From a virus, in IMG/VR virus record IMGVR_UViG_3300026229_000001, positions 1 to 29,561 of that record: 29,561 bases of DNA, one strand, 5' to 3'. Below are positions 16,424 to 29,561 of this stretch, piece by piece. The notes below the pieces were generated by a model. That model did no database searches. It was not told the origin of the DNA and saw nothing but the letters and a program-made list of their open reading frames with translations. Within the stretch, counting starts at the first letter, position 1. Every line of letters starts with the position of its first letter. Position numbers and translations under genes: made by a program.

Positions 16424-16732
16424 TTATCGGGCACACAGGGTTAGCAGGTGGCCCACATTGATGCGGGTCACATTCCAGTAGAGTTGCGTGGCTTCACCAC
16501 CAGTGAGCGGCTTCCACTCGTCATGGCTGAACACGGTGCCATCGGATGCGATGAATGTGTTGGGGCGTAGCTTGTGAAGTTCAGTCTCTACATGCTGCCG
16601 GTAGGTTTCGGCGAGGCTCTCGAAATCGAGGTGGTCGCAGGAGAGGTTTTCGAGGCGTGTCAGGTCGAAAGGCTCAGGGCAGTCCGGGGTGTGGGTGTAG
16701 AGCTGGGTGAAGTGGTTGGCGATCTTCTGCAT
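16424..16732 (-). CDS. Early-region hypothetical protein, paralogue A (102 aa)
   Basis: ATG at 16732 after AAAAGGAA. It aligns without gaps over the C-terminal 60 residues with the product of 16770..17078. Confidence 0.75.
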   Translation of the reverse strand: MQKIANHFTQLYTHTPDCPEPFDLTRLENLSCDHLDFESLAETYRQHVETELHKLRPNTFIASDGTVFSHDEWKPLTGGEATQLYWNVTRINVGHLLTLCAR

Positions 16733-16769
16733 GACGGGTTCCTTTTCTCGTGTGGTGGGTTGATGGTTT

Positions 16770-17078
16770 TTATCGTGTAGCTTCGGCAATGATGGCGTCC
16801 ACGTCGATCGTGTCGATCATGTCGTGGAGGTCTTCTGCCTCGTCCGGGGTGAGTGGCTGCCAGCCGGGTGGCCCATACACTGCACCGTCGAGGGTGACAG
16901 TCCACATGGGTCGGATGAGTCGTATGGCTTCTTGTACTTTAGCGTGGTACATGCGGCGCACCATAGCCAGATCCATGTCGTCTGAATGGTCTCCGGTGAG
17001 GCTGTGGAGGCTGAGGGGGTCGATTTCTGTCTGCCCGTAGAGGCTGGTGAAGGATGGTGTGATGAGTGTGCCATCCAT
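16770..17078 (-). CDS. Early-region hypothetical acidic protein, paralogue B (102 aa); first gene of the leftward arm
   Basis: ATG at 17078 after AAAGGAG. It has the same length as its paralogue and shares the residues Y, V, RP, DG, V, W, PLT, EA, L, I, V and R. Confidence 0.75.
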   Translation of the reverse strand: MDGTLITPSFTSLYGQTEIDPLSLHSLTGDHSDDMDLAMVRRMYHAKVQEAIRLIRPMWTVTLDGAVYGPPGWQPLTPDEAEDLHDMIDTIDVDAIIAEATR

Positions 17079-17134
17079 GGGTGTGCTCCTTTCGGTGGTG
17101 TAGGGATTGTCGCGGTTTCTAGAGTGTGCGGGCT

Positions 17135-17164
17135 GCGACCCCATGTCAAGGCTACGCTCATTCG
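17135..17164 (-). promoter_or_regulatory. Palindrome-plus-TTGACA box, copy 2 (candidate leftward early promoter/operator)
   Basis: Read on the minus strand: CGCTCA-atccgaa-TGAGCG, then 5 nt, then TTGACA. The hexamer starts 62 nt upstream of the ATG at 17078. Confidence 0.45.
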
Positions 17165-17749
17165 GATTGAGCGTTTCATGCTGGAGTGTCTGGTGTGACA
17201 GATGTCACTTAAGCCATTATGGCCTCTCTCAGCGCCTGATATATGTCCGGGGTAGGATTATATAGGGTTGGCCCTGCTGTTCGATTCTAGGGCCCTTCTA
17301 GGGCGTCTCAGGGGTATGTCTGGGTGATAGCGGGTGTGGCAGATGATCTAGCGAGTCAAGGTGCCGAGCTGAGACATAAGATCTATCATCTAGGTGTGTG
17401 AGATGCATCACATCCTCCTGGCTTAGTGTGCACCCTCAAGGCTACTCTGCCCATCTGGCGTGGAGGGTGTAGCCCAGAAATGCCGTTTAAAGCTTCAGGG
17501 GTACGCCTAGGAGCGCCTTGCAGGGTGGGGGCTAGGTATTTATACCCCCAGCATATTCTGATCGATTATAGACGCCTACAGGAGCTTGATACGCGATCCG
17601 CTATCCAGACGCAGATCATCAGCCCCCATCTTGCTTAGCTAAGCCTGCACTATGTGGACAGTGTGGGATGCTAAGAGGGAAGAAGGACACGGTAAAAAGA
17701 AGAGGGGGGAGCATCAGCCTTCACACCTTAAGGTCTTAGCACTGATGGA

Positions 17750-17786
17750 CTTAGCACCGAGCCCCTCAAGGGCTCGGCATCAGCCC
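17750..17786 (+). repeat. 37-bp perfect direct repeat, copy 1 (contains hairpin 17757-17777)
   Basis: The sequence cttagcaccgagcccctcaagggctcggcatcagccc is identical to 18272-18308. It holds an 8-bp stem, ccgagccc with gggctcgg, and a 5-nt loop. Confidence 0.95.
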
Positions 17787-18271
17787 GAGCAGGCTCAGCC
17801 CATCAGGCACAGCCCTGAAAGGGGTACACGCCATCAGGGAAGGCTTGAGAGTACGAGGAGCCTTAGCGACGAGTACTCGAAAGCCTGAGGGAACACCATC
17901 AGCACTGATGGGCCTAGCGTGTTCGGAAAGAACACAGGAGTACAGTGTGACAGCTGTCCGGGAGTGAACCCGTTCTGACTAGGGGTTTCAGCCTTAACCA
18001 CCCTCAAAGGTTACAAGACTCTAAGAAAATTTAAGGAAAAGTTTAGGTTTAATTTTTGGACCTTTACCACCAAAAACACCCGTTTACACCCCTCAAACCC
18101 GCCTATAGAGCCAAACGCCGATGTTGAGGGTATCTCTACCTAGTGTGATAGGCTGGACAGGTAGCCAGCTGGACGCAAGGCCAGAAAGTGCTGACGCACT
18201 TCCCATCCTCGCTTACCATCAGTCTACCAAACACTTAAAGACCTAAGGGCTTAGCGCTAAGGTGCTGATAG

Positions 18272-18308
18272 CTTAGCACCGAGCCCCTCAAGGGCTCGGC
18301 ATCAGCCC
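18272..18308 (+). repeat. 37-bp perfect direct repeat, copy 2 (contains hairpin 18279-18299)
   Basis: Identical to 17750-17786, offset by 522 bp. Confidence 0.95.
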
Positions 18309-18360
18309 TAAAGTCTTAAACACTTAAAGTACATATAAAACTTTAAAAGCTTAGCACTTA

Positions 18361-18660
18361 AGGTTATCAATAAACATTAAAGCTTTAAAATCTTAAAGTA
18401 AATATAACACCTTAAAGGCTTAGCACTTAAGGATATAAACTTTACATCAGTGTTTAAGACTTTAAAACTTAAAATAACTATTAAGACTTAAAGACTTATA
18501 AGCTTTAAACACTTAAAGTAACTATAAGACTTTAAAAACCTTAAGTACTTAAGGTTAACCATCAGTCTTAAACTTTAATATTATAACCTATAAGCTTTAA
18601 GACTTATAGGTTATAATATAATATAAGTTATAAAAGTTTTAGAAGAGCTAAAGGGTTAAC
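18361..18660. repeat. AT-rich core (23% GC) built from CTTAAAG / CTTTAAA / CTTAAGG-type motifs
   Basis: Hand count: 14 G+C in each of the five 60-nt lines 18361-18660, which is 70/300. It contains the 20-bp perfect palindrome at 18537-18556 and the 17/8/17 inverted repeat at 18578-18619. Confidence 0.9.
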
Positions 18661-19047
18661 TTCTTTACTTCTCTACTCTCTTTGGTACTTTCTCTCTTCT
18701 CTTCTTTTCTTCATCAGGGGAGAAGAGGAACCTTTACCGTCAACGCTGATGAGCTTTCACCGTGTGACTCGTGTACCACCGGTCGTACGCTCCCGGTTTG
18801 TACACTCCCCACACTTACTCTACCCGTGCCCCTTTAAGGCTTGGCGTGTTCGGCTGAAGGCGTACGGCGTGTCACGCCAACACCCTTAACACTAGGTAAG
18901 ACTTAAAGTGTATATTATATGTAGAAGACTTTAAAAACTTTAAGGGTGTTCCTGCTGAGCCCGTGTCCTTCAACGCTAGGCGCCAAGCGCTAAGCCTTGA
19001 AACGCGAACACACACCCACCCCCTTTTTTCTTTCGTGTCCTTCTCTT

Positions 19048-19076
19048 TTGACACAGCTGGGGGGCGATGTGATTTT
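19048..19076 (+). promoter_or_regulatory. Candidate rightward promoter upstream of the HNH gene and cos
   Basis: TTGACA at 19048-19053, a 17-nt spacer, and TG-t-GATTTT at 19068-19076. The -10 element is weak. The candidate rests on its position only. Confidence 0.3.
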
Positions 19077-19265
19077 TCTCACATGCCAGGGGGTAGTGGA
19101 GAAAACAACCACCCCAGAATATTCAAGACACCCCCTCAAACAAACAAAACAGCCCCTAGAATCGACTAGCAGGGCAAGGGTAGAGTATTCATACCCCCAA
19201 CGGTTCCCAGGCCGTTACAGAGGCAAATAAGACCCATACAAGGCTAGGCGAGGAACAGACACAAC

Positions 19266-19568
19266 ATGGCACGCACCAACCGCACAGCCACCGCAGCCCA
19301 CCGACGCTGGCGGCAACGACTCATCACCCAAGCCCGACAACAAGGCCAAACCGAATGCCCACTCTGCGGAGCAACCATCACCTGGAACACCCATGATCTC
19401 CCAACCAGCCCCGAAGCCGACCACATCACACCCGTCAGCAGGGGAGGACTCAACACCCTCGACAACGGGCAAATCATCTGCAGAACATGCAACAGAAGCA
19501 AAGGCAATCGCAGCGAACCAAACATCCAATTCCAACAACAAACCACAAAAACCCTGATCCCATGGTGA
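19266..19568 (+). CDS. HNH endonuclease
   Basis: 100-aa ORF with the RBS GAGGAA. The motif runs CPLCG...EADHITPVSRGG...LDNGQIICRTCNRSKGN. It lies 52 nt upstream of cos. Confidence 0.9.
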   Translation: MARTNRTATAAHRRWRQRLITQARQQGQTECPLCGATITWNTHDLPTSPEADHITPVSRGGLNTLDNGQIICRTCNRSKGNRSEPNIQFQQQTTKTLIPW

Positions 19569-19619
19569 AAAACCTGCCAACCCCCACCGGGGACACCCCC
19601 TGCACAGGCGTGCAAGACC

Positions 19620-19630
19620 TCGTACGGCTT
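19620..19630 (+). other. cos cohesive-end sequence (physical genome ends)
   Basis: The 11-mer tcgtacggctt is followed by agtgaaatacctccc. This matches my recollection of the 11-base single-stranded extension and the first bases reported for P. acnes phage genomes. It sits between the HNH and TerS genes. The recollection is unverified. Confidence 0.7.
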
Positions 19631-27750: not shown

Positions 27751-28136
27751 TTTGGCTCCACGGCCTGATTGATGATTATCGTGGGGCCATCGAATACGAT
27801 TTCCGCACTAAATTTGGTGTTTCTGTTTATAGTGTTGGTGGCCCGCAGATGTGTTGGGGTGAGGCTGTCCGGCTGGCTGGCGTGTTGTGTACCGATACGT
27901 CTAGCCAGTTGGCGGCCCACCTGAATGGTTGGCAGCGCCCGTTTGAGTGGTGCGAGTGGGCTGTGCTGGACATGTTGGATCATTACAGGTCTGCTAATAG
28001 TGAGGGGCAGCCGGAGCCTGTGGCGAGGCCTACGGATGAGCGTAGGGCCCGGTTTACGTCTGGGCAGGTGGACGATATTTTGGCGCGTGTTCGTGCCGGT
28101 GGCGGGGTGTCTCGCGAGATTAATATTATGGGGTGA
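27454..28136 (+). CDS. Tail assembly chaperone (G/T-like fusion made by a -1 frameshift near 27741-27747)
   Basis: The -1 frame is open from 27729. It encodes protein-like sequence (WLHGLIDDYRGAIEYDFRTKFGV...) well before its first ATG at 27849. A G-run, ctg ggg gaa, lies just before the G stop codon. Confidence 0.7.
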
Positions 28137-28143
28137 ATAGTGT

Positions 28144-29561
28144 ATGTCTGGTGAGATTGCTTCCGCATATGTGTCGTTGTATACGAAGATGCCCGGTTTG
28201 AAGTCTGATGTTGGTAAACAGCTTTCTGGGGTTATGCCTGCGGAGGGTCAGCGTTCGGGTAGCTTGTTTGCTAAGGGCATGAAGTTGGCTCTTGGTGGCG
28301 CCGCAATGGTGGGAGCTATCAATGTTGCTAAGAAGGGTCTCAAGTCGATTTATGATGTGACTATTGGTGGCGGTATTGCTCGCGCTATGGCTATTGATGA
28401 GGCCCAAGCGAAGTTGACTGGTTTGGGTCATACGTCTTCGGACACGTCTTCGATTATGAATTCGGCTATTGAGGCTGTTACTGGTACGTCGTATGCGTTG
28501 GGTGATGCGGCTTCTACTGCGGCGGCGTTGTCTGCTTCGGGTGTGAAGTCTGGCGGGCAGATGACGGATGTGTTGAAGACTGTCGCCGATGTGTCTTATA
28601 TTTCGGGTAAGTCGTTTCAGGATACGGGCGCTATTTTTACGTCTGTGATGGCTCGCGGTAAGTTGCAGGGCGATGACATGTTGCAGCTTACTATGGCGGG
28701 TGTTCCTGTGCTGTCTTTGCTTGCCAGGCAGACGGGTAAGACGTCTGCTGAGGTGTCGCAGATGGTGTCGAAGGGGCAGATTGATTTTGCCACGTTTGCG
28801 GCTGCGATGAAGCTTGGCATGGGTGGTGCGGCGCAGGCGTCTGGTAAGACGTTTGAGGGCGCTATGAAGAATGTTAAGGGTGCCCTGGGTTATCTTGGTG
28901 CTACGGCTATGGCGCCGTTTCTTAACGGCCTGCGGCAGATTTTTGTTGCGTTGAATCCGGTTATCAAGTCGGTGACGGATTCTGTGAAGCCGATGTTTGC
29001 TGCCGTCGATGCTGGTATTCAGCGTATGATGCCGTCTATTTTGGCGTGGATTAACCGTATGCCGGCTATGATCACTCGAATGAATGCACAGATGCGCGCC
29101 AAGGTGGAGCAGTTGAAGGGCATTTTTGCGAGACTGCATTTGCCTGTCCCTAAAGTGAATTTGGGTGCCATGTTTGCTGGCGGCACAGCAGTGTTTGGTG
29201 TTGTGGCTGCGGGTGTTGGGAAGCTTGTCGCGGGGTTTGCCCCGTTGGCGGTGTCGTTGAAGAATCTGTTGCCGTCGTTTGGTGCTTTGAAGGGTGCCGC
29301 CGGGGGGCTTGGCGGCGTGTTTCGTGCCCTGGGTGGCCCTGTTGGTATTGTGATCGGGCTGTTTGCGGCCATGTTTGCCACTAACGCCCAGTTCCGTGCC
29401 GCGGTGATGCAGCTTGTGGCTGTGGTTGGCCAGGCTTTGGGCCAGATTATGGCCGCTGTGCAGCCGCTGTTTGGTTTGGTTGCCGGGCTGGTGGCACGGT
29501 TGGCGCCAGTGTTCGGCCAGATTATTGGTATGGTTGCCGGTTTGGCTGCCCAGTTGATGCC
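28144..29561 (+). CDS. Tape measure protein, N-terminal part (runs off the window; continues at 3..1475)
   Basis: ATG at 28144, 8 nt after the chaperone stop. There is no stop codon before the window end. The phase continues into the ORF at the window start through the 127-bp overlap. Confidence 0.93.
   Translation, partial: MSGEIASAYVSLYTKMPGLKSDVGKQLSGVMPAEGQRSGSLFAKGMKLALGGAAMVGAINVAKKGLKSIYDVTIGGGIARAMAIDEAQAKLTGLGHTSSDTSSIMNSAIEAVTGTSYALGDAASTAAALSASGVKSGGQMTDVLKTVADVSYISGKSFQDTGAIFTSVMARGKLQGDDMLQLTMAGVPVLSLLARQTGKTSAEVSQMVSKGQIDFATFAAAMKLGMGGAAQASGKTFEGAMKNVKGALGYLGATAMAPFLNGLRQIFVALNPVIKSVTDSVKPMFAAVDAGIQRMMPSILAWINRMPAMITRMNAQMRAKVEQLKGIFARLHLPVPKVNLGAMFAGGTAVFGVVAAGVGKLVAGFAPLAVSLKNLLPSFGALKGAAGGLGGVFRALGGPVGIVIGLFAAMFATNAQFRAAVMQLVAVVGQALGQIMAAVQPLFGLVAGLVARLAPVFGQIIGMVAGLAAQLM
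29435..29561. repeat. Second copy of the 127-bp terminal overlap
   Basis: Identical to 1-127. Confidence 0.97.

Follow-up and report, generated by a model that had tools for sequence, protein, structure and literature searches.

The gene-free right-end region of a Cutibacterium acnes phage genome: a candidate composite control region with outward-facing promoter-like cassettes and a partly dispensable core

What is the use of 2.2 kb of DNA without a gene in a phage genome? The question is raised by positions 17079-19265 (the gap) of IMG/VR record IMGVR_UViG_3300026229_000001, a viral sequence of 29,561 nucleotides (nt) that was analysed at its full length and is referred to here as the window. 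In the window, the linear cos genome of a Cutibacterium acnes phage of the PA6 type (genus Pahexavirus) is present in circularly permuted form, and 232 C. acnes phages in GenBank match it at 85-88% identity. The published 11-nt cos overhang, TCGTACGGCTT, is found at 19620-19630, which is the end point of the linear GenBank records. An HNH gene lies to the left of the overhang and the small terminase gene to the right of cos; the structural genes run rightward, starting just past cos, and the early and replication genes run leftward, the start codon of the gap-side gene being at 17078-17076. The gap is the already known right-end noncoding region of Pahexavirus: it is located between the last leftward gene and HNH, beside the right cos end, it has a G+C (GC) content of 23.4% at 18310-18660, and its GC skew is negative from about 18.0-18.2 kb.

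Earlier work described this region, close to the right end, as a noncoding stretch exceeding 1 kb and as the site of greatest variation, in which GC falls below 25%, low-complexity runs are conserved and GC skew switches, and proposed an origin of replication for it (Marinelli et al., 2012; PMC3448167); a 'regulatory function' has also been suggested (Brüggemann and Lood, 2013; PMC3652107). The place, the GC drop, the low-complexity runs and the change of skew sign in the window are the same as in those papers. The 2012 text contains neither 'promoter' nor 'hairpin' (PMC3448167), and no account of promoters, operators, hairpins or transcripts in the gap was found in the published literature, so that its internal anatomy is, as far as the literature searched shows, undescribed, in keeping with what an initial annotation of the window had supposed. 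Beyond those papers, the present analysis adds three cassettes, CRP-type palindromes, a mirror architecture, a minus-strand hairpin, a map of dispensable and retained segments, and a skew polarity that does not favour an origin inside the gap.

The gap is probably, though by no means certainly, a composite cis control region that combines outward promoters and CRP-type operators with an accessory left core and a retained right core, the latter being the best candidate for replication initiation. In this model, two promoters arranged in tandem on the left edge, P4 and P1, would fire leftward into the early/replication operon, and a third, P3, would fire rightward into HNH and, after joining of cos, presumably into the terminase and structural operon. 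The palindromes would be operators for a CRP/FNR-type regulator or for a phage helix-turn-helix regulator. The core, 1.3 kb of untranslated DNA (17710-19015), would consist of two halves. The left half (about 17714-18257) would be an accessory module, dispensable for plaque formation, that holds GC hairpins, part of an array of CATCAG motifs and a minus-strand hairpin that is most likely RNA, whereas the right half (about 18260-19015), with an AT-rich array and an invariant block, would be the most plausible site of an essential function such as replication initiation. Among the roles proposed in the initial annotation, a divergent promoter switch is the best supported; the outward-facing cassettes are present at both edges, and their activity is predicted from sequence features.

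The noncoding status of the gap was assessed with an alignment of 77 distinct phage sequences (the window and 76 distinct IMG/VR relatives; median pairwise identity, 86%), to which the counts given below refer. No open reading frame (ORF) inside the gap has a stable frame or length in these sequences; the best one has a common stop in 69 of the 77, with shifting starts and lengths of 26-74 amino acids (aa). The stop codon of the flanking genes is retained in 76/77 and 77/77 sequences, and the period-3 structure that variable sites display in gp43 and HNH is absent in the gap. Small ORFs were rejected as genes on these two grounds, the lack of ORF conservation and of a period-3 signal. The claim that 2.2 kb, or about 7% of the genome, are free of genes is thus upheld: the gap makes up 7.4% of the window, and in phage Kubed (NC_027625) there is no annotation between gp43 and HNH and the next largest intergenic gap is 120 nt. 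Records differ in their annotation of the gap (GenBank KJ578768 and MW161466 vs NC_027625): Kubed has zero ORFs there, PHL082M00 is credited with three, of 37-44 aa, and PAVL33 with four others, and not one of these ORFs is conserved across phages.

The gap is also saturated with motifs, as had been noted initially, and every sub-part listed in that annotation was recovered at its coordinates. Enrichment is 7- to 80-fold over 1000 shuffles, none of which reached the observed value for any motif: CATCAG was observed 11 times (0.43 expected), CTTAGC 8 times (1.1), ACTTAARG 8 times (0.2), CCCTCAA 6 times (0.2) and CTTAGCAC 5 times (0.06). Seven CATCAG sites between 17778 and 18712 are retained in 69-76 of the 77 phages. 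The initial annotation referred to a large, variable noncoding region; the locus is indeed the published one, but the variability holds only in part, as the blocks 17825-18100, 18149-18175, 18625-18730 and 18850-18925 exceed the flanking genes in conservation. Variation is mostly in the form of 30-157-nt insertions and deletions (indels) within AT-rich repeats, which explains the reputation of the gap as variable.

The evidence for promoters begins with the 11-mer CTAGAATCGAT, which, with at most one mismatch, occurs at exactly three sites in the 29.5 kb, all of them in the gap, two on the minus strand and one on the plus strand (Table 1). The boxes are embedded in a cassette of about 45 nt that recurs at all three sites, and each box contains TAGAAT or TATAAT, a -10-like hexamer of the TAnnnT form, in which A2 and T6 are invariant across phages and T1 is replaced by C in many P3 copies. 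TAGAAT is a good actinobacterial -10 of the TAnnnT type, found in Streptomyces, Mycobacterium and Corynebacterium promoters. At P1, a generic promoter scan independently flags CTGAGA-16-TAGAAT (9/12). The positions of the cassettes (17245-17571 and 19128-19199) agree with the two sets of boxes noted initially, apart from the element at 17506-17571, which had been taken as a rightward promoter and is here re-read as the leftward P4. Because the phages that lack P1 all keep P4, which is present in every phage and is the only other minus-strand box, P4 is best read as a leftward promoter, and P1, which is deleted in 6 of the 77 phages, as redundant. A rightward promoter 'P2', with GTATTTATACCCCC as a -10 directed into the core, was rejected, since this sequence contains no TAnnnT hexamer and phages without P1 would then have no leftward promoter. 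The quasi-palindrome GGGGGTATAAATACC (17549 to 17536, minus strand) comes after the P4 box.

The palindrome TGTGA-N6-TCACA has three matches with at most one mismatch, two of them perfect and one at 9/10; all lie in the gap, whereas 0.84 would be expected over the whole genome. Each of the two perfect sites, which are mirror partners of each other, shows at least four different spacers; half-sites that are constrained around a drifting spacer are the signature of a site for a dimeric protein. Operators of the CRP/FNR family, such as those of E. coli CRP, M. tuberculosis Crp and C. glutamicum GlxR, have the consensus TGTGA-N6-TCACA. The sites in the gap share with them the conserved half-sites and the free spacer, but are situated at about -94 (P3) and -127 (P1) from the predicted starts, positions that are only partly canonical. 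The half-sites suggest a regulator of this family; a phage helix-turn-helix protein, of which three are annotated in Kubed, could be the ligand instead. The conservation of motifs across phages that the initial annotation had called for is thus found for these half-sites as well as for CATCAG.

The cassettes, the palindromes and a pair of 29-nt 'X' elements, built of C and T runs, together form an inverted duplication around the 1.3-kb core, with a long left module and a compact right module. The inverted X pair had been considered as transposon-like terminal repeats; it is part of the larger inverted duplication of promoter modules, and that candidate was rejected. No cassette other than P3 precedes HNH, cos and the late operon. 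Read-through across cos is inferred from this, and late transcription probably crosses the joined cos by analogy with phage lambda; as in lambda, a P3-HNH-cos-terminase transcription unit would be expressed only from circular or concatemeric DNA, whereas no counterpart of the lambda antiterminator or late activator was identified here. In actinobacteriophages whose structural genes form a rightward left arm and whose early genes form a leftward right arm, one or more strong early promoters are located near the right cos end, and their operators overlap or adjoin the promoter. The arm layout, the predicted early promoters near the right cos end and the nearby candidate operators are alike in the present phage. 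The two differ in that there is no sequence similarity, no stoperator-like motif is spread over the genome, the motifs being confined to the gap, and the spacer is much larger here and contains AT-rich repeats.

Natural deletions indicate which parts of the gap can be lost. The P1 box is lost through 130-200-nt deletions in six phages (L045, which is PAS50, and L019, L025, L048, L076 and L081), and the part of the predicted leader above 17182 is missing in the same six, isolate genomes among them being PAS50 and L048. PAS50 has been reported to lack almost 500 bp of the region (Lood and Collin, 2011; PMC3094311). In the alignment, PAS50 lacks 17182-17374 and 17714-18257 (544 nt) of the window, about 0.7 kb in all, the second deletion being the published PA6 interval 27932-28419 (window 17732-18215). 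This viable phage is therefore without P1, the cluster of hairpins and CATCAG motifs, the C-rich patch and the covarying hairpin described below. The segments 17375-17713, with a palindrome, P4 and an X element, and about 18532-19265, including the invariant 18625-18730, are retained in all phages, so that any essential cis function should lie there.

The left half of the core contains one structure that is supported by covariation, a hairpin of 69 nt on the minus strand (18160-18228). Over 55 distinct sequences, its 27 base pairs are kept in 99.7% of cases, and four of them show double compensatory changes (e.g., GUGC/GCAC, CCGC/GCGG and CUGC/GCAG); none of 500 shuffles was as good and no slid register came close. 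G-U accounts for 15.8% of cells on the minus strand, which correspond to A-C mismatches on the plus strand, and the folding energy is -35.0 kcal/mol (z -4.8) for the minus strand versus -20.0 kcal/mol (z -1.6) for the plus strand; the tolerance of G-U and the energies establish the minus strand as the folded one. A Y-shaped alternative fold was rejected, since it is 96.5% paired and one base-helix pair is broken in 15 of the 55 sequences, compared with 99.7% pairing for the long hairpin. Folding as RNA is likelier than folding as single-stranded DNA because tandem U-G/G-U pairs are invariant, and we infer from the sequences that the hairpin is transcribed.

The gap might also encode a single structured noncoding RNA of 1-1.7 kb, a long RNA of this kind being among the roles initially proposed. 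In a scan for local helices (span of up to 300 nt), only hairpin 18160-18228 rises above the level found inside the HNH coding sequence; two earlier, permissive scans for covarying helices were noisy, and the stricter scan left this one helix. The power of covariation is limited, as the relatives are only 77-94% identical, and the other hairpins of the gap are too conserved for covariation testing; the compensatory changes suggested as a check were found in this hairpin and not in the rest of the gap. Many hairpins are conserved, alifold energies beat column shuffles in many 120-nt windows, and the segments 17681-17709 and 19016-19044 are complementary over a long range, although the inverted duplication of promoter modules accounts for this pair. 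The preferred folding strand changes between sub-regions, no Rfam match was found for the gap or for the hairpin, PAS50 is viable despite the loss of 544 nt from the left core, the AT-rich part contains large indels, and, with P4 read leftward, none of the cassettes is directed into the core. A long structured RNA is therefore very unlikely. The search of Rfam 15 gave no match at or near the gathering score, only look-alike generic hairpins at 15-30 bits against thresholds of 40-100, and no tRNA or tmRNA was found in the gap. A hammerhead ribozyme, an idea prompted by CUGAUGA and GAAA loops, was rejected when the searches gave nothing.

More tentatively, the left core may be a lineage-specific accessory module that is transcribed from the minus strand into a structured RNA and CUGAUG-tagged GC hairpins and that, together with the CATCAG array, tunes replication initiation or the decision between lysis and the carrier state, although we regard this extension as doubtful. 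The left core could provide an RNA primer, form R-loops, or serve as a decoy to a protein that binds DNA or RNA. Were this so, loss of the left core in PAS50 would alter lifestyle without abolishing growth.

The right half of the core differs in kind. Its palindrome-rich segment of about 23% GC, noted initially and measured at 18310-18660, contains a perfect 17-bp palindrome (18578-18619) and units spaced by 34, 35, 76, 44 and 56 nt, with copy-number indels of 30-157 nt between phages. It overlaps a near-invariant block in which the pyrimidine/purine mirror reported for 18661-18730 was recovered as a 13-bp pyrimidine/purine hairpin at 18693-18728, with CATCAG in its loop, that folds better on the plus strand (-17.2 kcal/mol) than on the minus strand (-13.5 kcal/mol). 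A small AT-rich block at 18895-18945 has TATAAT-like hexamers on both strands.

These features bear on the proposal of Marinelli et al. (2012) that the region is an origin of replication. Taken as an explanation of the whole gap, with the AT array unwinding, the repeats or CATCAG binding an initiator, the hairpins priming and the promoters incidental, it overlaps with the composite model and is a real possibility, though a less probable one. The AT-rich core provides an unwinding element with 34-44-nt direct repeats of variable copy number, flanked by invariant blocks; the leftward operon encodes a DnaB-like helicase and a Toprim primase, together with exonucleases, RusA and a dNTP pyrophosphohydrolase; a hairpin that favours the minus strand lies to the left of the AT array and one that favours the plus strand to its right; and GC skew changes sign in the gap (PMC3448167). 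Frequent single-strandedness is also suggested by flips and corrections of hairpins. The apex of the 8-bp GC hairpin (17757-17777 and 18279-18299) is inverted, CCCCTCAAGGG to CCCTTGAGGGG or the reverse, in about 10 and about 6 of the 77 phages, and the quasi-palindrome 17843-17885 is 'corrected' to a perfect palindrome in two ways, its apex being deleted in two phages; these changes are, to judge by their form, hairpin-templated DNA events. Among origins that are activated by transcription or primed by hairpins, the T7 primary origin, ColE1 RNA II and RSF1010 oriV with ssiA/ssiB resemble the gap in that promoters lie beside an AT-rich segment, hairpins on opposite strands flank the AT array, the phage has its own helicase and primase, and a purine-rich minus-strand transcript is possible across 18730 to 18660. 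They differ in that the gap presents no initiator protein, regular iterons or evidence of priming, and its left hairpin is dispensable. Against the origin-only proposal, PAS50 does without the left 0.54 kb of the core (17714-18257), and the gap cannot be just an origin, since the sole promoter-like cassettes of the genome sit there.

A number of observations weigh against the composite model, and those that concern replication also weigh against the origin-only proposal. With respect to the promoters, the -35 regions are weak or unconserved, the candidates being CTGAGA (4/6) at P1 and CTCAAA (3/6) at P3, with poor conservation at P4. Generic scans for promoters and terminators find no excess over shuffles, intrinsic terminators with a GC stem and a T run numbering 3 against 3.4 expected, with none inside the gap. 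The conserved GTATTYATACCCCC part of the cassette carries no assigned role, 5'-terminal stabilising hairpins after the cassettes were rejected because these sequences fold like shuffles (z 0.16 to -0.65), and the literature search gave no transcript, 5'-end or binding data for the gap. For the minus-strand hairpin, no promoter that would transcribe it was identified, and a hairpin of minus-strand single-stranded DNA would tolerate G-T in the same way. With respect to replication, the gene content of the phage includes no recognised initiator, the single 8/9 match to a DnaA box in the gap is at the chance level genome-wide and belongs to no cluster, and phased iterons are absent, the 34-44-nt repeats of the AT array being irregularly spaced. 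Within the gap the skew switches with the polarity of a terminus, the origin-type switch being at cos (19617), and only HNH and its leader show strong reversed skew, that of the core being weak and mixed. An origin in the gap, as proposed initially, is thus possible in view of the AT-rich repeats and invariant blocks, but the expected boxes, iterons and skew are not those found.

The skew itself deserves closer description. The cumulative T-A skew has its maximum at 17567, in the P4 box, and its minimum at 19617, at cos, and the cumulative G-C skew turns (maximum) at about 18.0-18.2 kb. This polarity gives no ground for locating an origin in the AT-rich core, so that the published skew argument for an origin here is weaker than it looks. 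The same turning points could indicate a replication terminus or polar fork barrier, in which replication starts near the joined cos and the leftward fork is stopped in the gap by an oriented array, for example of CATCAG motifs or hairpins, making replication effectively unidirectional. CATCAG is oriented 9:2, plus versus minus (median per phage), and the tolerance of G-T/G-U on the minus strand would fit the lagging-strand template of a leftward fork. The core skew is weak and mixed, however, and the strong signal comes from HNH alone, perhaps through gene history or codon usage; a Tus- or RTP-like protein is not known here, and PAS50 grows without much of the CATCAG array. We therefore regard a fork barrier as quite improbable. 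Counts of polarised substitutions as a sign of a mutational switch were rejected as uninformative, being dominated by the availability of third-codon bases. The third-codon skew of HNH is the strongest in the genome and opposite in sign (GC3 -0.75, TA3 -0.84; coding plus strand). In the late (10) and early (9) genes sampled, the plus strand is G/T-rich irrespective of orientation, and local fork direction, an old inversion or acquisition, and codon usage are candidate causes of the HNH skew.

Repeated oriented motifs and an island of 23% GC in a phage of 54% GC, located between outward-facing promoters, would also suit a role in the episomal carrier state, as a site for partition or maintenance or as a silencing platform, for example with the AT core nucleating a host nucleoid-associated silencer; pseudolysogeny is documented for C. 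acnes phages (PMC3094311). ParA/ParB-type genes are unreported (PMC3448167) and there were none among the right-arm proteins scanned, and the gap has no plasmid similarity. For the partition site that the initial annotation had suggested there is thus no positive evidence beyond the repeated oriented motif, and this explanation is unlikely.

The composite model would be of practical value. The C. acnes phages form a single, very uniform genus that is under development for acne therapy and as an engineering chassis, and few genetic tools are available for the host. The genome has no other noncoding DNA of any size, and the gap holds probably every promoter and possibly the origin. The features in Table 1 provide a list of removable and must-keep segments and of putative promoters and operators with which expression in C. 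acnes might be controlled; the list narrows the search for a phage-derived replicon and offers handles on pseudolysogeny. The approximately 0.7 kb that is naturally dispensable is a suggested payload site in engineered phages.

Table 1. Coordinates in the window of the features of the gap and of its right neighbour
Feature	Position	Strand	Details
Predicted 5' leader of leftward operon	17079-17277	-	Ribosome-binding site GGAGC 17089-17085; alifold stem 17156-17176
Third, weaker palindrome TGTGA-CAGATG-TCACT	17194-17209		At most one mismatch in 35/77 phages
Promoter cassette P1 (predicted)	17245-17314	-	Box CTAGAATCGAA at 17290 to 17280; -10-like TAGAAT; faces left
Perfect palindrome TGTGA-N6-TCACA	17397-17412		Upstream of P1; half-sites in 73/77 phages; 6-nt spacer varies
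Promoter cassette P4 (predicted)	17506-17571	-	Box CTATAATCGAT at 17571 to 17561; consensus CTAGAATCGAT; faces left
X element, left copy	17681-17709		AGAAGGACACGG-purine run-GGGGGG; 29 nt; 79% complementary to right copy
GC-normal hairpin cluster with CATCAG and CTTAGCAC	17712-17960		Quasi-palindrome 17843-17885; hairpin 17919-17935
Exact 37-nt repeat, copy 1	17750-17786		CTTAGCAC, 8-bp GC hairpin, CATCAGCCC; -16.6 kcal/mol, z -3.25
Conserved block including C-rich patch 18061-18120	17960-18148		Ends in two-allele segment
Covariation-supported hairpin, 69 nt	18160-18228	-	Covarying core 18170-18218; 5' arm with CUGAUGG
Exact 37-nt repeat, copy 2	18272-18308		100% identical to copy 1
AT-rich core, 23.4% GC	18310-18660		About seven 34-44-nt units, each starting ACTTAARG
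Near-invariant 100-nt block, polypyrimidine plus strand	18625-18730		97-100% identity across 77 phages
GC-rich conserved block	18731-19015		Stem 18841-18848/18873-18880; in every phage including PAS50
X element, right copy	19016-19044		Inverted partner of 17681-17709
Perfect palindrome TGTGA-N6-TCACA	19068-19083		About 85 nt upstream of P3 box; 76/77 phages; variable spacer
Promoter cassette P3 (predicted)	19128-19199	+	Box CTAGAATCGAC 19156-19166; GTATTCATACCCCC 19185-19198; faces right
HNH endonuclease gene	19266-19568	+	100 aa; Pfam HNH, E 2e-11; outside gap

The gap region is confined to Pahexavirus, in which it is found in 231 phage records, and no homologues in plasmids or other phages were found outside this genus. 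A host origin of the GC hairpin was rejected, its 21-mer being absent from the Cutibacterium reference genomes (representative set), with 3 unrelated hits. CATCAG as a host restriction motif was likewise rejected, since the known C. acnes type IIIB motif, AGCAGY, differs from it.

Some further features of the left part of the gap may be mentioned. The C-rich patch is as first described, with 26 C versus 6 G in 18061-18120. The segment of about 18116-18148 at the end of the block that contains this patch occurs as two unrelated alleles, TCTACCTAGTGTGA... and CCAGGTGGGGTATGA..., adjoining the invariant 18149-18175, and looks as if it were an exchanged cassette. An invariant 16-mer, ACTATGTGGACAGTGT, occupies 17649-17664 and holds the single DnaA-box-like CTGTCCACA (minus strand); a TGGACAG core is common to this 16-mer and to the invariant 18149-18175. 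Beyond the left edge, the leftward operon opens with two paralogous genes (16770-17078 and 16424-16789, minus strand); both match phrog_919, a family of unknown function, and neither has a Pfam match.

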